Positions 3,987 to 62,931 of a stretch of DNA of 64,000 nucleotides are shown here, piece after piece (position 1 is the first letter of the stretch; the number at the start of each line of letters is the position of its first letter). Both the position numbers and the translations under genes were made by a program. Under the pieces are notes generated by a model. That model searched no databases. It was not told the DNA's origin and saw only the letters and a program-made list of their open reading frames with translations. The stretch spans positions 9,114 to 73,113 of the forward strand of contig JBKPIV010000009.1 of assembly GCA_046730395.1 (NCBI GenBank). The letters are read 5' to 3'. This DNA is from Actinomycetota bacterium. GTDB lineage: Bacteria; Actinomycetota; Thermoleophilia; Solirubrobacterales; 70-9.

Positions 3987-4998
3987 GGGCGCCGAGGTCT
4001 CCTTCCTCGGGACCCGCGATCGGCTCGAGGCCAGGCTGGTCCCGCAGGCCGGCTATGAGATCGATTTCCTGCGGGTGCGGGGCCTCGATCGAGCCTCGCC
4101 CGTGCGGGCGGCTCGGGCGCTGGGGCTCGCGGCCGCGGCGGTCCCCGCCGCTCGCCGCGTGCTGCGGCGTCGCCGTCCCGACGCCGTGATGGGCGGCGGA
4201 GGGTACGTGGCGGGTCCGGCCGGGCTCGCGGCCCTGTCGAACCGCGTGCCGCTCGTCCTCACCGAGGCCGACCGCCACCTCGGCCTCGCCAACCGGCTGC
4301 TGGCCCCGCGCGCACGCCGCGTTTGCCTGGCCTTTCCGATTCCGGGCCGCGACCGCGAGCCCTACCTCGTCACCGGACGTCCGGTCTCGGCGCTCATCGG
4401 CCGCGCCGACCGCGGCGCGGCGCGGGCTCGCTTCGGGATCGAGGCCGAGCGCTGTCTGCTCGTCTTCGGCGGCAGCCAGGGCGCCCGGTCGCTCAACCTC
4501 TGCGCGCTGGACGCTTTCCTCGGCGACGGTCCCGGGGCGCACGGGCGTGAATACCACGTGCTCCAGATCGCCGGGACGCGGGACTACGTGCTCGCCCGCG
4601 AGCGGCTGGCCGCCTCTTCGGGCGCGGAGCGCTACACGCTCCTCGAGTACGAGCCGAGCCTGGCCGACGCGCTCGCGGCCTGCGACCTCGTGCTCGCCCG
4701 AGCGGGCGGTTCGATGTTCGAGCTCGCCGCCGCCGGCCGTCCCGCGATCCTCGCCCCCTACCCCCACGCGTCCGCTCGGCATCAGCACGCGAACGCGGCG
4801 TGGATGGTCGAGGCCGGCGCGGCGATCGTGGTCGAGGATGCCGAGCTCGACGCCGCCACGCTCGTCCGCATCGTCGGCGAGCTGTTCGCCGATCCCGCGC
4901 GCCTCGAGCGGATGGCGAGCGCCTCACGCTCGCTGGCGCGTCCCGACGCGGCCGAGCGGGTCGCCGACGAGGTGCTGAAGGCCGCCCAGGCGCGATGA
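3904..4998 (+). CDS. murG: UDP-N-acetylglucosamine--N-acetylmuramyl-(pentapeptide) pyrophosphoryl-undecaprenol GlcNAc transferase
   Basis: N-terminal AAGGTAGHVVPALAVA glycine loop, GT28 architecture, and dcw position. Confidence 0.9.
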   Translation: MLGVVIAAGGTAGHVVPALAVADALRDKGAEVSFLGTRDRLEARLVPQAGYEIDFLRVRGLDRASPVRAARALGLAAAAVPAARRVLRRRRPDAVMGGGGYVAGPAGLAALSNRVPLVLTEADRHLGLANRLLAPRARRVCLAFPIPGRDREPYLVTGRPVSALIGRADRGAARARFGIEAERCLLVFGGSQGARSLNLCALDAFLGDGPGAHGREYHVLQIAGTRDYVLARERLAASSGAERYTLLEYEPSLADALAACDLVLARAGGSMFELAAAGRPAILAPYPHASARHQHANAAWMVEAGAAIVVEDAELDAATLVRIVGELFADPARLERMASASRSLARPDAAERVADEVLKAAQAR

Positions 4999-5044
4999 TC
5001 GGGGTCCGGCATTCGTCGCGCGAACGACGAAGGAGGCAGAATCG

Positions 5045-6385
5045 GTGACCGCCTGGACCGATCGGAAACTTCACTTCATCGCCATCGGTGGGGCGGGCAT
5101 GAGCGCCCTCGCGCTGGTGTGCCATCGCCTGGGCGCGCGGGTCAGCGGGTCCGACCGCGCCGAGAGCTCTTACGTGAAGCGACTCCGGGCGGCCGGCCTC
5201 GCCCCCCGGATCGGCCACGACGCCGATGCCGTGCCGCCCGATGCGGAGGTCGTCGTCTCCACCGCCGTTCCAGCCGCCAACCCGGAGCTCGTGCGGGCCT
5301 GCGAGCGCGGGCAGCGGATCGTCCACCGCGGCGAGCTCCTCGCCGAGCTCTGCGCGACCAAGCGATTGATCGGGGTTGCGGGCACGCATGGGAAGACGAC
5401 AACGGCGGGGATGCTCGCGCACGCCATGGCCACGAGTCCAGAGACGAGCTTCGTGCTCGGCGGCGAGCTACCGGGTGCCGGCGAGAACGGTGAGACGACG
5501 AACGCCCGCTGGGGCGATGGCGAATGGGTGATCGCCGAGGCCGACGAGTCGGATGCCAGCTTCCTGCGCCTGGAGCCGGAGGTAGCCGTGGTCACGAACG
5601 TCGAGCTCGACCATCACTCGCGGTGGTCATCGCGAGCCGAGCTCCTCGACGCCTTCCGGCGCTTCTGCGCGCCGGCCCGCGGCCTGGCGTTGCCCGCCGA
5701 TGGCTCGCTCGACGCGCTCGCCCGGGAGCAGGCGATCGTCCGGTTCGACGCCGGGACGCCCGGACCGGAGCTCCGCCTCCGGATCCCCGGCAGCCACAAT
5801 CTGGTGGATGCCCGGGCCGCGCTCGCCGCGATCGAGCTCGCCGGGCTCGACGTCGATGCGGCCGCGGAGCGCCTGTCCGGGTTTCCGGGCATCCTGCGCC
5901 GCCTCGAGTTCAAGGGCCGCCGCAACGGGGCGGTCATCTACGACGATTACGCGCACCACCCGACCGAGGTCAGCGCGACGCTGGCCGCGCTCAGGGAGCT
6001 GGGCCCGCGCCGCCTGATCGCGGTGTTCCAGCCGCATCTTTACTCCCGCACCAAGGCCCTCGGGGTGGGCTTCGGGCAGGCGCTGGCCGCCGCGGACGAG
6101 ATCGGCGTGCTGGACGTGTACCCGGCGCGTGAGGAGCCGATCGGGCCGCTCGCCGGCGTGAGCGGACTGGCGGTTGCCCGCGCGGCGGCCGATCGGGCCG
6201 ACGGGCGCCCCGTCTGGTGGCTGGTCGATGCCGAGCGTGCGGAGCGGGCCCTCGCGCCGCGGCTTCGAGACGGGGACCTGCTGGTCACGATCGGGGCCGG
6301 TGACATCTTCAAGCTGGCCGACGCGTTGGTGGCCGGGGCGAGCGGCGAGCGGCGAGCGGCGAGCGCTGAAAGGAAGCCCGGGTGA
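5045..6385 (+). CDS. murC: UDP-N-acetylmuramate--L-alanine ligase
   Basis: IGGAGMSALA N-terminal motif, GTHGKTTT P-loop, and Mur ligase C-terminal domain. Confidence 0.9.
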   Translation: MTAWTDRKLHFIAIGGAGMSALALVCHRLGARVSGSDRAESSYVKRLRAAGLAPRIGHDADAVPPDAEVVVSTAVPAANPELVRACERGQRIVHRGELLAELCATKRLIGVAGTHGKTTTAGMLAHAMATSPETSFVLGGELPGAGENGETTNARWGDGEWVIAEADESDASFLRLEPEVAVVTNVELDHHSRWSSRAELLDAFRRFCAPARGLALPADGSLDALAREQAIVRFDAGTPGPELRLRIPGSHNLVDARAALAAIELAGLDVDAAAERLSGFPGILRRLEFKGRRNGAVIYDDYAHHPTEVSATLAALRELGPRRLIAVFQPHLYSRTKALGVGFGQALAAADEIGVLDVYPAREEPIGPLAGVSGLAVARAAADRADGRPVWWLVDAERAERALAPRLRDGDLLVTIGAGDIFKLADALVAGASGERRAASAERKPG

Positions 6386-55444: not shown

Positions 55445-57067
55445 ATGGCCGATACGTCGATCGAGCGCTTCCGCAGGGTCGTCAAGGCCGCGTACGCCCA
55501 GCTCGAAGCGAGGCGGCAGGAGGTCAACGACCTGAACGTCTTCCCGGTCGCCGACGGCGACACGGGCGACAACATGGCGCTCACGCTTCAGGCCGTGATG
55601 CGCGAGCTCGATCGCCTGAACGGTCAGCCGATCAGCGCCAACCGCGACGAGATCGTTCACGCCGTCGCCCGCGCGGCGCTCATGGGCGCCCGCGGAAACT
55701 CCGGCGTCATCCTGAGCCAGATCGTCCGCGGCGCCGCCGAGGAGCTGGCCAGCCGCCCGGGGGAGCTGGTCGACCCGGTGCTCGTGGCCGCGGCACTGGC
55801 GCGGGCCGCCGACGCCGCGTACGAATCGGTCCGGGATCCCGCGGAGGGCACCATGCTCACCGTCATCCGCGAGATGGCGCACGCGGTCTCTCATCACCTC
55901 GCCCATATGGACCGTCAGCGCCTCTCCCCGGCGGCCACGGACGCCGAACAGGACGAGCTGCTCGCCGAGGTCCTCGCCGTCGCGACCGAGGCGGGAGAGG
56001 CAGCCGTGCAGCGAACGACCTCCCAGCTCGAGGTCCTCGCCGAGGCCGGGGTGGTGGACGCCGGCGCCTACGGGCTACTGGTGATCCTGGTGGGTGCGAT
56101 GGCGGGCCTCCGCGACGGCGCGGAGGAGCTGCCGGAGATCCCGCACCACGAGCCGCCCCGCCAGACCCGGCCGCACCACTTCGACAGCCGCTATCGGTAC
56201 TGCACCAACTTCATCGTCACCGGCGAGGCGCTGGATGCGCGTGCGTTCGCCCCGCGACTGGAGGAGCTGGGCGACTCGGTGCTCGTGGTCGGCGACCAGG
56301 CGACGCTCAAGGTTCACGTCCACACGGACGAGCCGGAGGTCGCGGTCGCGGCCTTTGAGGAGGCCGGCGACGTGCAGCGGCTCGACGTCGCCGATATGCG
56401 GGAGCAGATCGCCGCCCGCGAGGCGCGCCTCACGCAGGCGCGCACCGGGGTCGTCGCGGTGGCGGCGGGCGACGGGATGAAATCGCTGTTCGAGGGCCTC
56501 GGCGCCCACGTGGTGGACGGAGGCCCCAGCCTCAACCCATCCACGTACGAGATCCTCGCGGGCATCCACGAGGTGACCGCCGAGGAGGTGCTCGTGTTAC
56601 CTAACTCCCCGAACGTCCTGCTGGCCGCGCGGGAGGCGGCGAAGCTCTCCGAGAAGCCCGCCCGCGTGGTGCCGTCGCGCTCGCAGCAGGCGGCGCTCGC
56701 GGCGCTGGTGGAGGTCGACCCCGCGGCCGAGGGGCAGCGAAACGCCGTCCGCCTCTCCGAGGCGCTCGCGGAGATCCGCTCCGGGGCGATCGCCCCGGCG
56801 GCGCGCGACGATCCCCAGGGACGGTTCGTCCGCGGCGATGCGGTCGGTTTCGCCGAGGACGGGGTGGTGGCCTGGGGCGGCGCGGGCTCGACGCTCTCGG
56901 CCACGATCGAGCGCATCGCCTCCGGCGCGGAGCTGGTCACCGTGATCGAGGGAGAGCGCGCCCCGATTCCGCTCGACCAGCTGCCGCTGTCCCTTCCCGA
57001 TGGCGTCGAGGTCGAGCTTCAGAACGGTGGACAGCCGCATTACTGGTGGCTGCTCGCTGCTCAGTGA
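55445..57067 (+). CDS. yloV: DAK2-domain fusion protein YloV
   Basis: The N-terminal DAK2 motif LNVFPVADGDTGDNM and a DegV-like C-terminal half. The conserved rpmB-yloV-recG neighbourhood supports the call. Confidence 0.85.
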   Translation: MADTSIERFRRVVKAAYAQLEARRQEVNDLNVFPVADGDTGDNMALTLQAVMRELDRLNGQPISANRDEIVHAVARAALMGARGNSGVILSQIVRGAAEELASRPGELVDPVLVAAALARAADAAYESVRDPAEGTMLTVIREMAHAVSHHLAHMDRQRLSPAATDAEQDELLAEVLAVATEAGEAAVQRTTSQLEVLAEAGVVDAGAYGLLVILVGAMAGLRDGAEELPEIPHHEPPRQTRPHHFDSRYRYCTNFIVTGEALDARAFAPRLEELGDSVLVVGDQATLKVHVHTDEPEVAVAAFEEAGDVQRLDVADMREQIAAREARLTQARTGVVAVAAGDGMKSLFEGLGAHVVDGGPSLNPSTYEILAGIHEVTAEEVLVLPNSPNVLLAAREAAKLSEKPARVVPSRSQQAALAALVEVDPAAEGQRNAVRLSEALAEIRSGAIAPAARDDPQGRFVRGDAVGFAEDGVVAWGGAGSTLSATIERIASGAELVTVIEGERAPIPLDQLPLSLPDGVEVELQNGGQPHYWWLLAAQ

Positions 57068-57122
57068 CGCATCTCACACTCCGACCGGCGCCTCGCTCAT
57101 TCCCGGTGGGTAGCTTGGCCGT

Positions 57123-57912
57123 ATGAGGGGCTCGAGGCCCGTTCTCTGGCATATCGCCATCTCGCACTACAACGAGAAGGTCCGCTGGGCGCTCGACTAC
57201 AAGTCCGTGGACCACGAGCGCCGGGCGCCGCCCCCGGGAGCCCACATGGCGGTCGCGCTGTGGCTCACCCGCGGCCGCCGCAAGACCTTTCCGATCCTGC
57301 AGCTCGACGGCGACGCGATCGGCGACTCGACCGCGATCATCGCGGCGCTCGAGCACCGCTTTTCCCGATCCGCCGCTTTACCCGGAGGACCCCGCCGAGC
57401 GCGCACGGGCGCTCGACCTGGAGGAGTTCTTCGACGAGGAGCTCGGTCCACACGCCCGCCTCCTGGCCTTCCACGAGGCGATCAGGCATCCGGCGACCGT
57501 CGAGCGGTTCACGGTCGACCTGCTCCCAGGGCGGGTCCGAGACTCGAGCGTCGTGCGGGCGGGGGCGACAAGGTTCTTCTCGGGCTTCGCCTCGGTTCGC
57601 TACGGCGTCCGGAGCGAGCGGGCCGCCGAGCTCGCCAAGCACAAGATCCTGGCGGCGTTCGACCGTCTCGAATCGGAGCTCGGCCCGAACGACTATCTGG
57701 TCGGGAGCGGTTTCACCGTCGCTGACCTGACCGCCGCCTCGCTTCTCTATCCCGTCGTCGGGCCCCCCGAGGGTCCGGAGCTAGGGGAGCCGCCGCCGGC
57801 TTATGAGCGCTTCCGGGCCCCGCTCGCCGACCGCCCCGGCTACCGGTGGGTCGAGGAGATGTTCCGGCGCCACCGCAAGCCCGCGGATCGCGCGAGGGTC
57901 GCGGTCAGCTGA
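57123..57912 (+). pseudogene. Glutathione S-transferase-like protein, frame-disrupted at a T4 run
   Basis: The GST N-domain (LWHIAISHYNEKVRWALDYK...FPILQLDGDAIGDSTAIIAALEHR) is in the frame of ORF 57123. The continuation (FPDPPLYPEDPAERARALDLEEFFDEELG...YLVGSGFTVADLTAASLL) is in the frame of ORF 57553..57912. The junction is at T4 57360-57363, and removing one T restores a single ORF. Confidence 0.6.
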
Positions 57913-58378
57913 CCTCGACGATCGCCTCCACCTCGACCGGCACGTCGAAGGGGAGCTCGGAGGCGCCGATCGCCGAGCGGGCGTGGCGGCCGGCCTCGCC
58001 CCAGAGCTCCATGATCAGCTCCGAGAAGCCGTTGATGACCGCAGGCGTCTTGCTGAAGCCCGGGGCGCAGTTGACGAGGCCGAGCACCTTGACCCATCGG
58101 CTCACCCGATCGAGGTCGCCGAGCTCCTGCTTGAGCCCCGCGCAGATCGCGAGCCCGACGAGGCGCGCCGCCTCGTAGCCCTCCTCCACGGTGACGTCGG
58201 CGCCGACCTTTCCCGTCACCAGGACCTCGGCGCCGTCGGTCGGCAGGTGGCCGGAGACGTAGGCGAGGTTGCCGTTTACCTGCACGAGATCGAACTTGAA
58301 CTCGACTCCCGGCGGGGCGGCGAACGGCTTCGGCAGCTCGAGCCCGAGCTCGGCCAGCCTGTCGTCGATCCGTCCCAT
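57905..58378 (-). CDS. RidA/YjgF/TdcF-family reactive-intermediate deaminase-like protein
   Basis: YjgF fold pattern (YVSGHLP...VKVLGLVN...ARSAIGASELPFDVPVEVEAIVEV). ATG 58378 was chosen as the start. Confidence 0.75.
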   Translation of the reverse strand: MGRIDDRLAELGLELPKPFAAPPGVEFKFDLVQVNGNLAYVSGHLPTDGAEVLVTGKVGADVTVEEGYEAARLVGLAICAGLKQELGDLDRVSRWVKVLGLVNCAPGFSKTPAVINGFSELIMELWGEAGRHARSAIGASELPFDVPVEVEAIVEVS

Positions 58379-58475
58379 CGGCGGGACAACATAACCCCCC
58401 CGCCGCGGCGGCACGGTCCGGCTCCTCCCCTCGGCGCGGGTTCCGGCCCCGCGCCGCCGTAGCCTTGGTTACGAG

Positions 58476-61400
58476 ATGAGCAACGCGGTGGCTCCCCCTC
58501 GCGAGCGCGAAGTCGCGGCCGAGCCCGAGGCCCCGTGCGCGTTCGCGAGCACGGACGAACAGGATCGCGAGCTGCTGCGCTCCGCCGCCCTGCGCTCTGT
58601 GCCGCGACCGAGCGTGCTCGCGGCCGGCGTCGCATCGCTTCGCGGCGCGGGGCCCAAGCTCGCCGCCGCCGCCGGGGAGCTCGGGATCCAGAGCCTGGGC
58701 GATGTCCTCCTCCACGTCCCGCACTCCTATCGCGAGCGCTCGGCGCCCCGCAAGCTCGCCGAGGTTCGGATCGGGGAGCGGGCGACGGTCGAGGTGCGGG
58801 TGCGCTCGGTGAGGGTCCGCCCGACCCGGCGCCGGGGGCTGGTGATCGTCGAGGCGACGGTGGCCGACGACTCCGGGCCGGGGAAGGCGGTCTGGTTCAA
58901 CCAGGCCTGGCTCGGGGAGCGCCTGCGCGAGGGTACGCGCCTGCTGCTCTACGGGAAGCTCGACCGGACCGGGCTTAGGGTGGAGGCGCATGAGTTCCTG
59001 GACTCGGGCGACGGCGCGTGCGGTGGCTCCAGCCCACCGCCAGGGCTCCACACGACGGGGATCGTGCCGGTGCACCCCGCGTCCGAACGGCTGCGCGCCC
59101 AGCGGTTGCGTGAATGGGCCTGGCAGGTGCGCTCGCTGGCCCGGCACGCGCTGGAGCCCCTGCCCGCCGAGCTTCGCGCCAGGCGCCGCCTCGGCGCCGC
59201 CGGCGACGCCCTCGCTACGGCGCAGTTCCCGCGCGACCTTGAGGCGGCCGAGCGCGCGCGGGGGCGGCTCGCCTTCGAGGAGCTCTTCCTTCACCAGGCC
59301 GCGCTGGCCACCCGGCGTCAGGGGCGGGACGCGGCCCGGCCCGGGATCGCCCTGGCCGAGCCGGGCGAGTCGGTCCAGCGCTGGATCGAGTCGCTGCCGT
59401 TCGAGCTCACCTCCGATCAGCGCCGCGCGATCGACGAGCTCGACGCCGACCTGGAAGCTGAGCGTCCGATGCAACGGCTCTTGATGGGAGAAGTCGGATC
59501 TGGAAAGGCGCAGCCCCTTGACGCGGGGGTGCTGACGCCGACTGGCTTCAGAAGCATGGGTGATCTCCAGGTCGGGGACGTGGTGATCGCCCCGGACGGC
59601 ACGACGACGCACGTCACCGGCGTGTTCCCGCAGGGGGTACGTGATGTGTGGCGTGTCCACTTCTCCGATGGAACGAGGGCCGACTGCGATCTCGATCACC
59701 TCTGGCAAGTACAAACCAGCACGGCTCGCTGCCGTGGCGATCGGCCGAAGGTGATGACGCTCCGAGAGATCGCGTCTGATCTGCGGCGCCCAAGCGGGGC
59801 TGCGAAATGGCATATCGAATTGCCAGCTCCCGCAGATCTAGAGCACGGGGGGGACAGACCGCTTGAGCCCTACCTGCTCGGCCTTCTTCTCGGCGATGGG
59901 GGATTGACGGTCGCGAGTTGTGTCCGGTTCACCAGTTCCGACAGCGAGCTCGTCGCCTCAGTGCGCGCCGCTCTGCCCGCTGGCTGCAAATTGCGACGAC
60001 AGCCCCATCGGCCTTATGACTGGACGGTTGTCTCGGAACGACGGCAAGTTAATGCTGCGGTGCTTGCTCGGGCGACTCGTGGCGACGTCGCATCGATGGC
60101 GCGTGCGTACGAGGCGGGCGCGAGTCAGGAGGCGATCGGGCTGAAAATCGGTCTTAGCGGCACAATGGTCCGCCACCACCTGCTCAAGCACAACGTACGA
60201 ATGCGCGAGCCCGGCAGCCGCCCTAATCCCCTTGTCGCGAGCCTACAGGCCTTGGGTCTGATGGGCAAGTCCGCGCGCGAGAAGGCGGTTCCTCGCTCGT
60301 ACCTAATCGCTCCTCGACGAGTTCGACACGCCGTTCTTCAGGGTCTGATGGACACAGATGGAACTCTGAGCTCCAGTGGGTCGGACGTGACATTTACCTC
60401 GGCCTCTCGAGAGCTGGCCGAGGACGTGGCGTGGCTGGTCCGCTCGCTCGGTGGTCGGGCCCGGTGTCGCAGCGTGAGGAAATCGGGGCGCTCGTATTGG
60501 ACGACCAGCGTGATCCTTCCGGCTGCGTTTCCTCCGTTCAGATTGACCCGCAAGGCCGCGCTGCTAAGGCCGCGCACGAAGTACGCCAACCCGGCCAAAG
60601 CGATCGTCGAGGTGACCCGCATCGGCACTAAGCCTGTCCAGTGCATCTCGCTGGCCCATCCGAGTCAGCTGTACATCACTGATGGCTTCACTGTCACCCA
60701 CAACACCGTCATCGCTCTCTACGGCATGCTGCGCGCGGTCGAGGCGGGTTTTCAGGCGGCCTTGATGGCGCCCACGGAGACCCTCGCCGAGCAACACGCG
60801 GCGACCCTGGACCGGCTGCTCGCCGCGCACGCGCTCCCGTTCGCGCTGCTCACGAGCGCGACGCCGGCCGGGCGACGGCGCCGGGCGCTCGACCGCCTGG
60901 CCTCCGGCGAGCTCGAGATGGTCGTCGGCACCCACGCCCTGATCGAGGAGGACGTGGCGTTCGCCCGGCTCGCCCTCTGCGTGGTCGACGAGCAGCACCG
61001 CTTCGGGGTTCGCCAGCGCGCCGCGCTCGACGCCAAGGGGGCGGACGGCAGGGCACCGCATGCGCTGCACATGACCGCGACGCCGATCCCGCGAACCCTC
61101 TCCTTGACCGCTTATGGCGATCTGGACGCCACCGTCCTCCGGGAGCTCCCTGCCGGGCGCAAGCCGGTCGCGACCTGGGTGGTGGGGGAGGACAAGCGGG
61201 CCGGCGCCTACGAGTTCATCCGCGAGCGGCTGCGCGAGGGGCGCCAGGCATATGTCGTCTGCCCGCTGGTGGAGGGATCGGAGAAGCTCGAGGCGAAGGC
61301 CGCCGCCGAGGAGGCCGAGCGCCTCCGCGCGAGCGAGTTCGCCGACTTCGAGGTGGGGCTCCTGCACGGCCAGATGCCGCCCCGGGACAAGCAGGCGGCG

Positions 61401-61898
61401 ATGGAGGGCTTCGCGCACGGGAGAACGGACGTGCTCGTCGCCACGAGCGTGATCGAGGTGGGCATCGACGTCGCGAACGCGACCGTGATGCTGATCGAGG
61501 GCGCCGAGCGCTACGGGGTGTCGCAGCTCCACCAGCTCCGCGGCAGGGTGGGGCGGGGCGAGCACGCCTCCCATTGCATCTTGTTCGCCGACCCGGGCTC
61601 GGAGCTCGCGCGACGAAGGCTGAGCGCGATCGAGGCGGAGAGGGACGGGTTCAAGCTCGCCGAGGTGGACCTGGCGCTCCGCGGCGAGGGCGAGATCCTC
61701 GGCACGCGCCAGCACGGGCTCCCGCGGTTCCGGGTGGCCGAGCTGCCGGATGACATCGCCCTGCTCACCCAGGCGCGCCGCGAGCTGATCGGGTTGCTGG
61801 ATCGATACGGCTCCCTCGACGCGCCGGAGCTCGGCCCGCTCCTCGACGCCGTGCGCCAGCGCTTCGGGGACGAGCGCGACGAGCCGATCGCGGCCTGA
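58476..61898 (+). CDS. recG: ATP-dependent DNA helicase RecG, interrupted in frame by an intein
   Basis: A wedge/OB N-domain and helicase motifs (GEVGSGK..[399-aa insert]..TVIALYGM; VVDEQHRFG; MTATPIPRT; LHGQM; TSVIEVGIDV; QLRGRVGRG). The length without the insert is about 741 aa. Confidence 0.9.
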   Translation: MSNAVAPPREREVAAEPEAPCAFASTDEQDRELLRSAALRSVPRPSVLAAGVASLRGAGPKLAAAAGELGIQSLGDVLLHVPHSYRERSAPRKLAEVRIGERATVEVRVRSVRVRPTRRRGLVIVEATVADDSGPGKAVWFNQAWLGERLREGTRLLLYGKLDRTGLRVEAHEFLDSGDGACGGSSPPPGLHTTGIVPVHPASERLRAQRLREWAWQVRSLARHALEPLPAELRARRRLGAAGDALATAQFPRDLEAAERARGRLAFEELFLHQAALATRRQGRDAARPGIALAEPGESVQRWIESLPFELTSDQRRAIDELDADLEAERPMQRLLMGEVGSGKAQPLDAGVLTPTGFRSMGDLQVGDVVIAPDGTTTHVTGVFPQGVRDVWRVHFSDGTRADCDLDHLWQVQTSTARCRGDRPKVMTLREIASDLRRPSGAAKWHIELPAPADLEHGGDRPLEPYLLGLLLGDGGLTVASCVRFTSSDSELVASVRAALPAGCKLRRQPHRPYDWTVVSERRQVNAAVLARATRGDVASMARAYEAGASQEAIGLKIGLSGTMVRHHLLKHNVRMREPGSRPNPLVASLQALGLMGKSAREKAVPRSYLIAPRRVRHAVLQGLMDTDGTLSSSGSDVTFTSASRELAEDVAWLVRSLGGRARCRSVRKSGRSYWTTSVILPAAFPPFRLTRKAALLRPRTKYANPAKAIVEVTRIGTKPVQCISLAHPSQLYITDGFTVTHNTVIALYGMLRAVEAGFQAALMAPTETLAEQHAATLDRLLAAHALPFALLTSATPAGRRRRALDRLASGELEMVVGTHALIEEDVAFARLALCVVDEQHRFGVRQRAALDAKGADGRAPHALHMTATPIPRTLSLTAYGDLDATVLRELPAGRKPVATWVVGEDKRAGAYEFIRERLREGRQAYVVCPLVEGSEKLEAKAAAEEAERLRASEFADFEVGLLHGQMPPRDKQAAMEGFAHGRTDVLVATSVIEVGIDVANATVMLIEGAERYGVSQLHQLRGRVGRGEHASHCILFADPGSELARRRLSAIEAERDGFKLAEVDLALRGEGEILGTRQHGLPRFRVAELPDDIALLTQARRELIGLLDRYGSLDAPELGPLLDAVRQRFGDERDEPIAA
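59508..60704 (+). mobile_element. Intein (399 codons) with a LAGLIDADG homing endonuclease domain, inserted between Lys and Thr of the RecG Walker A motif
   Basis: It starts AQPLDAGVLTPTGF and ends FTVTHN, followed by Thr. It has two LAGLIDADG motifs (YLLGLLLGDGGL; VLQGLMDTDGTL). Block B is DLDHLW and block F is VQCISL. GC is visibly lower than in the flanking recG. Confidence 0.8.
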
Positions 61899-62431
61899 TG
61901 CGCGTGGTCGCCGGGGAGCTCAAGGGGCGGCGACTCGCCGCGCCGCCGCGCCGCTCCGCCGCGGTGCGCCCGACCGCCGACCGGGTCCGCGAGGCCGTCT
62001 TCTCAATGCTCGGCGAGATCGGCGGCGCGGGCGTCCTCGACCTCTTCTGCGGCACCGGCGCCCTGGCCATCGAATCGCTCTCCCGCGGCGCCGCGGACGC
62101 GGTGCTCGTCGACATCAGGACCTCGCTGGCGCGCCGCAACGTGGCGAGGCTCGGCCTCGGGACGCGGTGCGAGGTGGTGCGCTCCGACGCGCTGCGCTAC
62201 CTGCGCCGCACCCGGCGCCGCTTCGACCTGATCTTCTGCGACCCGCCGTATAGACTCGCCGACCGTCTTGAGGGGGAACTCGACCTGCTCGTCGGTGGCC
62301 GGCTCGCCAGGGGCGGCCGCTTGATCGCCGAGACCGCGGCCCACCGGCCGCTGGCCCTGGGACTGCCCCTGCTTGCCGAGCGGCGCTACGGGGAGACGAT
62401 GGTCCGCATCCACGCGGGGGCGGATCGATGA
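61898..62431 (+). CDS. rsmD: 16S rRNA (guanine966-N2)-methyltransferase RsmD
   Basis: RPTADRVREAVFSML, DLFCGTGAL, and DPPY motifs. The start overlaps the recG stop by 1 nt. Confidence 0.85.
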   Translation: MRVVAGELKGRRLAAPPRRSAAVRPTADRVREAVFSMLGEIGGAGVLDLFCGTGALAIESLSRGAADAVLVDIRTSLARRNVARLGLGTRCEVVRSDALRYLRRTRRRFDLIFCDPPYRLADRLEGELDLLVGGRLARGGRLIAETAAHRPLALGLPLLAERRYGETMVRIHAGADR

Positions 62432-62931
62432 GCGACGGGCGCACCGCCATCTGCCCGGGCACCTACGACCCGGTCACCAACGGTCACCTGGACATCATCA
62501 CCCGGGCCGCCAAGGTGTTCGACAGGGTGGTGGTCGGGGTCGTGAACCAGCCGGTTCGCAAGCAGACCACCCTGTTCAGCGGCGAGGAGAGGCGAGCCTT
62601 CATCCAGGCGGCGCTCGCGGAGGGGGACATCGGCAACGTCGAGGTGGCGGTCTTCTCCACGCTGCTCGTCGAGTTCGCCCGCGAGCACGGCGCGGGCGCG
62701 ATCGTCAAGGGGCTTCGCGCGATCTCCGACTTCGAATACGAGTTCGAGATGAACCAGTTGAATCGCAAGCTGGCGCCGGACATCGAGTCCGTCTACATCA
62801 TCGCCTCACCGGACTACAGCTTCCTCTCCTCGACCGGCGTCAAGGAGATGGCGACCTTCGGGGGCGACGTCTCTGACCTGGTGCCTCGTGGGGTCGTCGA
62901 GGCCCTGAACGAAAAGCTTCGTCGGGGCTAG
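62428..62931 (+). CDS. coaD: Phosphopantetheine adenylyltransferase
   Basis: CPGTYDPVTNGHLDII (HxGH-type) and ISDFEYE motifs. It overlaps rsmD by 4 nt. Confidence 0.9.
   Translation: MSDGRTAICPGTYDPVTNGHLDIITRAAKVFDRVVVGVVNQPVRKQTTLFSGEERRAFIQAALAEGDIGNVEVAVFSTLLVEFAREHGAGAIVKGLRAISDFEYEFEMNQLNRKLAPDIESVYIIASPDYSFLSSTGVKEMATFGGDVSDLVPRGVVEALNEKLRRG

Follow-up and report, generated by a model that had tools for sequence, protein, structure and literature searches.

A class 3 intein carrying a nested LAGLIDADG homing endonuclease domain in the Walker A motif of RecG from a Thermoleophilia-type actinobacterium

[quoted passage not shown] More precisely, assignment to this class relies on a Trp at position B:12, a Cys at F:4, a Thr at G:5, a C-terminal His-Asn dipeptide, and a residue 1 other than Cys, Ser or Thr (PMC2807308); a DxxH motif of these inteins has been described as well (PMC6195587). 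Their splicing route goes through a branched thioester in block F, N-terminal cleavage occurring without a nucleophile at residue 1 or +1, and the block F Cys was found to be absolutely required in every W-C-T intein tested (PMC2807308, PMC5222942). Two of the best-studied members, MsmDnaBi1 and MchDnaB-1, are both nuclease-less mini-inteins. The class-defining paper of 2010 (PMC2807308) already described class 3 inteins within RecG and within ATPase P-loops, and RecG inteins were listed for Actinobacteria (Novikova et al., 2016, PMC4760082); a literature search with the phrase "RecG intein" matched no papers. Since class 3 RecG and P-loop inteins were reported at that time, the RecG intein presented here is a further example of a documented kind of element and site.

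The host gene is the recG of a Solirubrobacterales/Thermoleophilia-type actinobacterium, as judged from the closest RecG orthologues, and lies in the window, i.e. the whole stretch of 64,000 nucleotides that was analysed. The intein-containing precursor is encoded by one unbroken open reading frame of 1140 aa at 58476-61898 on the forward strand, of which aa 345-743 constitute the insert. The original prediction had placed an insert of 399 codons at 59508-60704, splitting the Walker A loop, and both the coordinates and the frame proved exact. The two exteins are as follows.

58476..59507, forward strand: RecG N-extein, aa 1-344, carrying the wedge/OB domain (Pfam RecG_wedge) and Walker A up to its split, with GEVGSGK as its last residues

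60705..61898 (stop codon included), forward strand: RecG C-extein, with the Thr that completes GxGKT, followed by DEQH box, helicase C-terminal domain and RecG domain 3, as recognised by Pfam DEAD, Helicase_C and RecG_dom3_C; continuous alignment to 1GM5

The insertion point lies between the Lys and the Thr of GEVGSGKT, in frame to the codon, and the junction flanks read RPMQRLLMGEVGSGK and TVIALYGMLRAVEAG, in this order. Removal of the 399 codons yields a RecG of 741 aa in which GEVGSGKT is rejoined, as had been anticipated: this spliced form aligned with the Thermotoga maritima RecG structure 1GM5 over residues 49-710 without any gap at the P-loop (E 6e-139), as well as with 9WM0 in one ungapped stretch, and its wedge domain and SF2 helicase motifs are contiguous. 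Matches to orthologues begin at residue 1 of the N-extein. Even with the insert, the NCBIfam RecG equivalog model NF008168 scored 760 bits, above its cutoff of 718, the match being divided in two by the insert. Long antisense or overlapping open reading frames also occur around recG, for instance at 57840-59813 on the reverse strand, and were treated as artefacts of high GC content.

Within the insert, the splicing blocks (numbered after Tori et al., 2010, PMC2807308) were located at the following positions.

59508..60704, forward strand: the complete intein, 399 aa, from Ala1 to His398-Asn399, supported by PDB and database homologues, an AlphaFold2 (AF2) model and Foldseek

59508..59546, forward strand: block A, AQPLDAGVLTPTG, with the non-nucleophilic Ala1; A1, Q2, P3, L4, T10, P11 and G13 are nearly invariant among 48 aligned family members

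59670..59705, forward strand: block B, GTRADCDLDHLW, with Asp61-x-x-His64 (B:7/B:10) and Trp66 (B:12), aligned to ADAQHQW of 6BS8

60636..60689, forward strand: block F, VQCISLAHPSQLYITDGF, with Cys379 (F:4), Ile380 and Tyr389, an aromatic residue; its counterpart in the 6BS8 alignment is PVRCVEVDNPEHLYLAG

60690..60707, forward strand: block G, TVTHN followed by T, with Thr397 (G:5), His398, Asn399 and the C-extein +1 Thr

The best sequence matches in the PDB by phmmer are class 3 inteins, namely Msm DnaBi1 (6BS8, 3e-10) and Mch DnaB-1 (6RIX/6RIY), and the signature residues align residue for residue with these solved DnaB inteins (6BS8, 6RIX). Residue 1 is Ala (GCG, 59508-59510), neither Cys, Ser nor Thr. 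Trp66 (codon 59703-59705) stands two residues past His64, the stretch His64-Leu65-Trp66 facing HQW of 6BS8 (cDlDHlW against aDaqHqW), while Cys379 (codon 60642-60644, in VQCISL) belongs to the stretch PVQCIS and faces the catalytic Cys118 of 6BS8, within PVRCVE (PVqCis against PVrCve). Thr397 (codon 60696-60698, in TVTHN) precedes His398-Asn399 (vTHN against pTHN), and the first residue after the junction, Thr+1 (ACC, 60705-60707), is the GxGKT Thr itself. Cys60 occupies position B:6, where the family consensus likewise shows a Cys, as it does at B:7. In addition to the block A residues, H64, L65 and W66, and likewise C379, I380 and Y389, are nearly invariant among the 48 aligned family members. 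The original prediction of a class 3 intein from its W-C-T residues was thereby borne out on alignment to 6BS8 and 6RIX/6RIY, the three residues falling in blocks B, F and G, respectively. By its sequence signature, the RecG insert is a class 3 intein, with Cys379 as the predicted branch-point nucleophile. One could consider that Thr+1 attacks the N-terminal junction directly, as in the KlbA-type Ala1 inteins (PMC5222942), Cys379 being then only structural or assisting. Nevertheless, such a class 2-like route appears very improbable, given that class 2 inteins are devoid of the W-C-T triplet (PMC2807308), that the block F Cys was indispensable in all W-C-T inteins tested (PMC2807308, PMC5222942), and that the closest solved relatives of the RecG intein are proven class 3 inteins.

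By analogy with the other members of the family, splicing would thus proceed through Cys379; the order of the chemical steps, splicing itself and the function of the endonuclease are inferred here. The Lys(-1)-Ala1 peptide bond would be activated by the block B residues His64 and Trp66, and attacked by the thiol of Cys379, so as to place the N-extein on this residue as a branched thioester. The N-extein would subsequently be transferred to the Thr+1 hydroxyl, so that the usual branched ester of block G is formed, after which cyclisation of Asn399, aided by His398, would release the intein; an O-to-N acyl shift would finally create a normal peptide bond, restoring GEVGSGKT in a RecG of 741 aa. 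As its ATP-binding loop is split, no helicase activity would be expected of the 1140-aa precursor.

Regarding the fold, the original prediction had proposed both Hint/intein and LAGLIDADG_3 HMMs as a check, and the outcome was divided: LAGLIDADG_3 was found (E 2.5e-11, 44.1 bits against a cutoff of 22.5), while the Pfam Hint and intein-splicing models gave no match at E<=0.1 in the RecG precursor. Among Pfam models, only LAGLIDADG_3 and, weakly, Hom_end scored on the insert, and the NCBIfam models for intein-containing proteins matched the nuclease part only. Because the Pfam Hint models gave no match, the HINT assignment rests on the phmmer matches in the PDB and on the fold recognised by Foldseek. 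The AF2 model of the intein (pLDDT 95.7, pTM 0.91) displays β-strands (pLDDT above 94) in aa 1-104 as well as in aa 363-398, in agreement with a HINT β-fold built from the N- and C-terminal segments. Foldseek matched this HINT part to 6RIX, 6BS8, gp41-1 and the Prp8 inteins, with an identity of 30-33% to 6RIX/6BS8, and the whole chain to TliVMA (3.7e-17), PI-SceI and PI-PfuI.

The HINT domain is interrupted by the endonuclease, whose features are given below.

59859..60515, forward strand: homing-endonuclease domain of the LAGLIDADG type, inside HINT at about aa 118-336 (Pfam LAGLIDADG_3, AF2 secondary structure, Foldseek)

59874..59903, forward strand: LAGLIDADG motif 1, LLGLLLGDGG, aa 123-132, with Asp130 at the catalytic position; G129 and G131 are invariant and D130 nearly invariant

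60051..60221, forward strand: helix-turn-helix (HTH)-like module, aa 182-238 (about 57 aa), inserted where a linker joins the two LAGLIDADG half-domains

60336..60365, forward strand: LAGLIDADG motif 2, LQGLMDTDGT, aa 277-286, with Asp284 at the catalytic position; G279, L280, D282 and G285 are invariant and D284 nearly invariant

The two LAGLIDADG motifs that had been noticed at first reading could thus be assigned to aa 123-132 and 277-286, and the presence of two such helices, with acidic residues at the catalytic positions and paired half-domains of αββαββα type, corresponds to a two-motif monomeric LAGLIDADG nuclease. The endonuclease domain found its Foldseek matches in PI-SceI, TliVMA, PI-PfuI and I-DmoI. 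This nested nuclease would cut intein-less recG alleles site-specifically at the conserved P-loop sequence, and repair from the intein-bearing copy would then introduce the intein together with a short flanking stretch of extein, thereby ensuring homing.

The module of about 57 aa is the one unusual feature of the RecG intein. It consists of four helices in the whole-intein AF2 model (pLDDT 91-96), and was found in all four region-covering matches from RecG of the PMQRLLMGEVGSGK type (P0001, P0002, P0004, P0019), but in none of the other relatives aligned; complete inteins among the 120 best matches measure 271-365 aa, compared to 399 aa here. Sub-threshold Pfam matches to HTH_58, HTH_23 and Sigma70_r4 were obtained for the module in 4/4 orthologous inserts tested. 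Foldseek with the isolated module returned nothing significant, the best match (E 0.4) being a helical segment of CPS1; many of the sub-threshold matches are HTH proteins. The HTH identity is to be taken as tentative. It is conceivable, though rather doubtful, that the module is a recently captured HTH DNA-binding domain, which would extend or retune the recognition of the GC-rich P-loop site of Thermoleophilia recG. If so, the linker between the nuclease halves could be a general docking point for modules in the nucleases of class 3 inteins; a viral relative carries an unrelated insert at this same linker position. The HTH-like module may be of interest for meganuclease engineering.

Several observations bear on the mobility of the RecG intein. 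The original prediction had reported a lower GC content inside the insert, from a hand count over several lines; the contrast is real but smaller than counted, the insert containing 63.9% GC, compared to 74.8% and 73.1% for the N- and C-exteins, respectively. In windows of 200 nt, the GC fraction ranges from 0.61 to 0.675 inside the insert and from 0.70 to 0.785 outside, and the contrast is sharper at third codon positions, where GC3 is 0.71 in the insert against 0.90 and 0.94 in the exteins. Besides, the region immediately upstream of the junction shows a deviating codon usage.

59454..59507, forward strand: putative co-conversion tract, the last 18 codons (54 nt) of the N-extein, with donor-like A/T-ending codon usage

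In this tract, 9/18 codons end in A or T, compared to 6.7% in the remaining exteins (binomial P = 7e-7), which is the maximum across all 18-codon windows of the exteins; the empty-site orthologues mostly use GC-ending codons there. With respect to these orthologues, the 80 closest RecG proteins (Solirubrobacterales/Thermoleophilia MAGs, 60-85% identity) all read an uninterrupted GEVGSGKT, with no homologous non-intein sequence at the site, these 80 being the best-scoring tblastn loci, among which intein-bearing orthologues, scoring lower, may be under-represented. The consensus of the intein-less P-loop site is ATGGGCGAGGTCGGCTCCGGCAAG followed directly by ACCGTGGTCGCCCTCTACGCGATG, given also as ATGGGCGAGGTCGGCTCCGGCAAGACCGTGGTCGCCCTCTACGCGATG. 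The low GC3, the 54-nt donor-like tract and the empty sites in relatives fit an acquisition by homing, in line with the horizontal origin initially proposed, and together form an unusually clean homing footprint in a genome of 71% GC, the site being empty in every close relative recovered. A phmmer search of the intein against the six-frame open reading frames of at least 80 aa matched recG only, so that no second intein was found in the window. No close phage donor was found either, GenBank phages showing at most 41% identity and IMG/VR at most 39%.

The resemblance of the insert to inteins is far beyond chance at the sequence level: 1527 database proteins match it at E<=1e-3, the best at 1e-158. 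The family statistics are based on the best 120 of these 1527 homologues, and residue invariance on the 48 aligned members. Among the best 120, all members aligned end to end share His-Trp-Cys-Thr-His-Asn followed by Thr or Ser, the N-terminally aligned ones start with Ala except two with Ser1, and the hosts include RecG, PhoH, RecA, SNF2 and DnaB, with insertion mostly between the Lys and the Thr or Ser of GxGKT/S. These data bear directly on the idea that the insert would be a lineage-specific domain that mature RecG retains, or the product of a chimeric assembly. A retained insert would destroy ATP binding by splitting GxGKT; moreover, both junctions preserve the reading frame exactly, the HINT and LAGLIDADG fold is complete in the AF2 model and by Foldseek, the insert is absent from 80/80 closest orthologues, and the same element occupies the same RecG site in other actinobacteria as well as the P-loops of unrelated ATPases, so that this idea is effectively refuted.

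Another possibility is that the intein no longer splices and has inactivated recG, or that it splices but carries a dead endonuclease and is inherited vertically only. recG is dispensable in many bacteria, and its intact frame alone is therefore no proof of working splicing. The closest relative found (P0001/L081, 63% identical) ends in His-Lys (THK) instead of His-Asn (THN), and its recG is spread over six or more frame segments. As neighbouring genes on its contig are also split, suggesting indel errors in the assembly, this relative was set aside as evidence of pseudogenisation: the RecG-intein allele may be decaying in some lineages, an assembly error in L081 being equally possible. Inactive endonuclease domains are documented in inteins, such as PhoVMA (PMC8966425). 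In the present precursor, on the contrary, the 1140-codon frame is unbroken, all residues known to be important for class 3 splicing (H64, W66, C379, I380, Y389, T397, H398, N399 and T+1) are intact, both LAGLIDADG Asp residues are present, and the extein helicase motifs are preserved with a full alignment to RecG, while the GC3, not yet ameliorated, and the donor-like tract next to the insert speak for a homing event of fairly recent date. A loss of function, be it of splicing or of the endonuclease alone, is thus considered improbable.

The position of the insert, its signature residues, its fold, the empty sites and the foreign composition are established here, and all the refutation checks of the original prediction that sequence allows were run, none of them speaking against the intein. 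The preferred reading, to which we assign a probability of roughly 0.88, is that of a mobile class 3 intein with a LAGLIDADG homing endonuclease, inserted between the Lys and the Thr of the recG Walker A motif and able to excise itself. The gene should consequently be annotated as an intein-containing recG, and neither as a helicase that is fused or aberrant nor as an independent "LAGLIDADG endonuclease", labels that several public relatives bear at present. Class 3 gains a host of Thermoleophilia type as well as a full-length example that keeps its nuclease, while the current understanding of inteins is unchanged. Location in the P-loop would make RecG activity dependent on a cysteine-initiated reaction, and a redox sensitivity of this splicing, by analogy with Msm DnaBi1, is speculation.

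Compared with known systems, the RecG intein shares with the prototype DnaB intein of mycobacteriophage Bethlehem, Msm DnaBi1 (6BS8) and Mch DnaB-1 (6RIX) a non-nucleophilic residue 1, the DxxH-x-W motif, Cys F:4, Thr G:5, the terminal His-Asn and a Thr or Ser at +1, as well as a location in a helicase P-loop, directly behind the GxGK Lys. It differs from these class 3 DnaB inteins by its host, RecG instead of DnaB, and, in contrast to the Msm and Mch mini-inteins, it keeps a full LAGLIDADG domain. The redox-switch Cys48 of Msm DnaBi1 has no evident counterpart, Val47 being found there in the pairwise alignment. The class 3 RecG inteins of Actinomadura, Spirillospora and Streptomyces have the same site (G[SA]GK followed by T), an AQPLD start, W-C-T, THN followed by T, and a LAGLIDADG domain, with 38-48% identity across the whole intein. 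However, the Actinomycetota RecG inteins are, where complete, 339-341 aa long (P0003, P0005, P0007, P0010) and devoid of the module of about 57 aa, which is carried by the present intein and its PMQRLLMGEVGSGK-type (Thermoleophilia-like) RecG relatives. Finally, PI-SceI (with its DRR), TliVMA, PI-TkoII and PI-PfuI, the best structural matches over the whole chain, likewise have a two-motif LAGLIDADG nuclease nested in a HINT domain, HTH-like accessory domains having been described in TliVMA and PI-TkoII (PMC8966425). These are, however, class 1 inteins (Cys1) with just 10-16% identity to the RecG intein, and their accessory domains follow the nuclease, ahead of the C-terminal part of HINT, whereas the extra module of the RecG intein is lodged within the nuclease itself, in the linker that joins its two halves.

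The recG ORF of the window is interrupted by an insert whose features, taken from the ORF list for the precursor and from the translation for the others, are the following.

58476-61898, + strand: RecG precursor ORF, 1140 aa
59508-60704, + strand: intein, 399 codons (aa 345-743)
59703-59705, + strand: Trp66 codon
60642-60644, + strand: Cys379 codon
60696-60698, + strand: Thr397 codon

Within this 1140-aa ORF, Pfam places RecG_wedge at the N-terminal side and DEAD, Helicase_C, and RecG_dom3_C at the C-terminal side, with LAGLIDADG_3 between them, and the RecG equivalog NF008168 (NCBIfam) scores 760 bits in two separate stretches, the second one starting from residue 744. In the translation, the insert is preceded by ...RPMQRLLMGEVGSGK and followed by TVIALYGMLRAVEAG, and joining the exteins yields 741 aa. 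The coordinates and the 399 codons announced by the original prediction are matched exactly, and the Trp, Cys, and Thr codons flagged there are those of Trp66, Cys379, and Thr397.

Once conceptually spliced, this RecG aligns with the Thermotoga maritima RecG 1GM5 in a single ungapped stretch over the P-loop (llmgevgsgktvialy against llqgdvgsgktvvaql; E 6e-139), and can also be aligned to 9WM0. The spliced protein was used as a query over GTDB, with one genome per species, and the best 80 loci were kept, all from Solirubrobacterales/Thermoleophilia/Actinomycetota MAGs, with 60-85% identity over about 2.1-2.3 kb. Judged from these loci, the host is a Thermoleophilia-type actinobacterium. The insert is missing from every close RecG orthologue recovered, G[ED]VG[SA]GK-T being uninterrupted in 80/80 of the loci kept, a set in which intein-bearing species may be under-sampled since split matches rank lower. 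That the insert is a domain retained in RecG, or results from misassembly, can be effectively excluded.

Class 3 inteins have a non-nucleophilic residue 1 and usually Ser or Thr at +1, and they keep three universal intein residues, His B:10, His G:6, and Asn G:7 (PMC2807308; PMC5222942). At the sequence level, the RecG insert possesses all the features of this class, including its W-C-T signature (Trp B:12, Cys F:4, Thr G:5). The top matches of a phmmer search against all PDB chains are three class 3 DnaB inteins, namely Msm DnaBi1 6BS8 (3e-10) and Mch DnaB-1 6RIX and 6RIY, with the pairs cDlDHlW/aDaqHqW, PVqCis/PVrCve, and vTHN/pTHN; the W, C, and T assigned beforehand to blocks B, F, and G fall on those of the three structures. 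The Cys of PVrCve is the catalytic Cys118, and the block B DxxH variant, here Asp61-Leu-Asp-His64, is known for class 3 inteins (PMC6195587). Searching 5.8 billion proteins with the insert returned 1527 relatives, and in the best 120 of these the key positions of all sequences aligned end to end are occupied by His, Trp, Cys, Thr, His, and Asn, the next residue is Thr/Ser, and residue 1 is Ala except for two with Ser. Their hosts are RecG, PhoH, RecA, SNF2, DnaB, and other ATPases, mostly interrupted between GxGK and T/S. In a 48-sequence alignment, A1, H64, L65, W66, C379, I380, Y389, T397, H398, and N399 are invariant or nearly so.

The insert is therefore confirmed as an observation, and its interpretation as a class 3 intein, already proposed by the original prediction, is supported by this signature together with homology to proven class 3 inteins. 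Splicing is predicted to pass through a branched thioester at block F and to depend strictly on Cys F:4. A class 2-type mechanism, in which Thr+1 would attack directly, is disfavoured by the full W-C-T signature and by the same homology. Besides, Cys60 (block B:6; 59685-59687) precedes the His of block B by four residues (ADCDLDHLW), and the family consensus ECCxDHLW has a Cys at the matching position plus another at B:7. Since Msm DnaBi1 has a Cys48-Cys118 redox switch, a Cys60-Cys379 disulfide is conceivable by analogy.

An AlphaFold2 model of the intein, built on the 48-sequence alignment, reaches a mean pLDDT of 95.7 and a pTM of 0.91. With Foldseek against the PDB, the whole chain matches TliVMA (7QSU, 3.7e-17), PI-SceI (1EF0, 1VDE, 1LWT), PhoVMA, PI-PfuI, and PI-TkoII, the HINT segments match 6RIX, 6RIY, and 6BS8 (30-33% identity), and the central domain matches I-DmoI and I-Tsp061I. 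The latter domain contains two LAGLIDADG motifs.

aa 123-132: motif 1, LLGLLLGDGG, catalytic-position Asp130
aa 277-286: motif 2, LQGLMDTDGT, catalytic-position Asp284

The LAGLIDADG endonuclease claimed earlier is thus borne out by the Pfam match, the two motifs, and the I-DmoI-like fold. As both acidic residues are kept across the aligned intein family, the nuclease is plausibly active.

In terms of composition, the intein differs from its exteins both in GC (0.639 versus 0.748 and 0.731) and in GC3 (0.71 versus 0.90 and 0.94), and the 200-nt GC profile is lowered from about 59400 to about 60700. The low-GC3 signal starts upstream of the N-extein/intein junction: 9/18 of the last N-extein codons (59454-59507; GAA GCT ... 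CAA ... GGA GAA GTC GGA TCT GGA AAG) end in A/T, whereas the remaining extein codons do so in 6.7% of cases (binomial P = 7e-7). This is the maximum over all 18-codon extein windows, and empty-site orthologues mostly read GGC GAG GTC GGC TCC GGC in this tract. The homing footprint at recG is clear, and 59454-59507 would represent a co-conversion tract copied during homing from a lower-GC donor allele, which is consistent with the empty sites and with the site-specific clustering of RecG-allele inteins. That the intein is dead or decaying is disfavoured, its frame and catalytic set being intact and its compositional footprint fresh. Some of the unusual codons recur in two empty-site orthologues, L004 and L012 (GGA..GGA TCT), a possible hint of an invasion that was later lost. 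Viral sequence is rich in members of the intein family: GenBank phages give 516 records, in genes for terminase, helicase, and others, and IMG/VR gives at least 598 matches; all of these show at most 41% identity, so that no direct donor was found among them.

The nearest relative, P0001, is encoded at locus L081 of another high-GC MAG (4097-5296 plus flanks; ENA ERZ25039533 contig_39081). Its intein occupies the same site, with 62% nt and 63% aa identity and the same HTH-like insert, and the order FakA-GST-RidA-recG is syntenic. Around recG, the gene order over 55445-62931 of the window is as follows, with recG between the RidA-like and rsmD-like ORFs.

55445-57067: DAK2/FakA-like gene
57123-57725: GST-like ORF, named from Pfam GST_N matches of the corresponding L081 gene
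57905-58414, - strand: RidA-like ORF
61898-62431: rsmD-like ORF, downstream of recG, read by eye
62428-62931: coaD-like ORF, downstream of recG, read by eye

One downstream frame of L081 is also rsmD-like. The abundance of long ORFs that are antisense or overlap others in this part of the window is probably a typical high-GC artefact. The L081 intein ends with ...THK (AAG) before T, not THN, and lies in one frame; its exteins fall into at least six frame segments, which could come from indel errors made in GC-rich homopolymers during assembly, or from decay of the allele.

Misleading annotation of intein hosts is common (e.g., the homologues P0003, P0008, P0091, and P0111), as illustrated by a RecG fragment labelled 'LAGLIDADG family homing endonuclease' and by a class 3 intein sitting between ...VEGN and T in a 'peptidoglycan-binding protein'. 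As the latter site is not a P-loop, the family invades non-ATPase sites as well. In PhoH alleles, insertion occurs between FMRGR and T.

At 399 aa, the RecG intein exceeds the complete inteins among the best 120 of the 1527 relatives (271-365 aa), and the alignment locates an extra module between the two LAGLIDADG half-domains.

60051-60221, + strand: extra module of about 57 aa (aa 182-238)

Among the relatives aligned, it is common only to P0001, P0002, P0004, and P0019, all PMQRLLMGEVGSGK-type RecG; Actinomycetes RecG alleles and the other aligned hosts are without it. AlphaFold2 folds it as a compact four-helix bundle within the whole intein (pLDDT 91-96), and the pLDDT of the module is 81 when modelled alone. 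Each of the four orthologous inserts gives sub-threshold Pfam matches to HTH_58, HTH_23, or Sigma70_r4 (E 0.043 to 1.4e-4). Foldseek with the isolated module returned nothing significant, its weak matches including HTH domains of Fis, ParB, LuxR/GerE, DeoR, and WhiA. A plausible reading is that the module has an accessory role in DNA binding and sits in a linker that tolerates insertions. In a viral class 3 relative (L086, 3001-4218; IMG/VR UViG_3300005657_000016), the same linker holds about 60 aa of unrelated extra sequence, which suggests that accessory modules enter preferentially at this hot spot.

Class 3 inteins in RecG and at ATPase P-loops were described by Tori et al. (2010; PMC2807308). 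Novikova et al. (2016) reported 12 RecG inteins, every one in Actinobacteria, and same-junction RecG alleles with 38-48% identity are present in the public database for Actinomadura, Spirillospora, Streptomyces, and actinobacterial MAGs, several labelled only 'LAGLIDADG family homing endonuclease, partial'. The novelty of the recG intein is low, since its class, type of site, and host protein family are already known. Its HTH-like insert adds a new variant feature, though a modest one: the HTH-like accessory domains described for TliVMA and PI-TkoII are placed elsewhere than in the RecG intein (PMC8966425).
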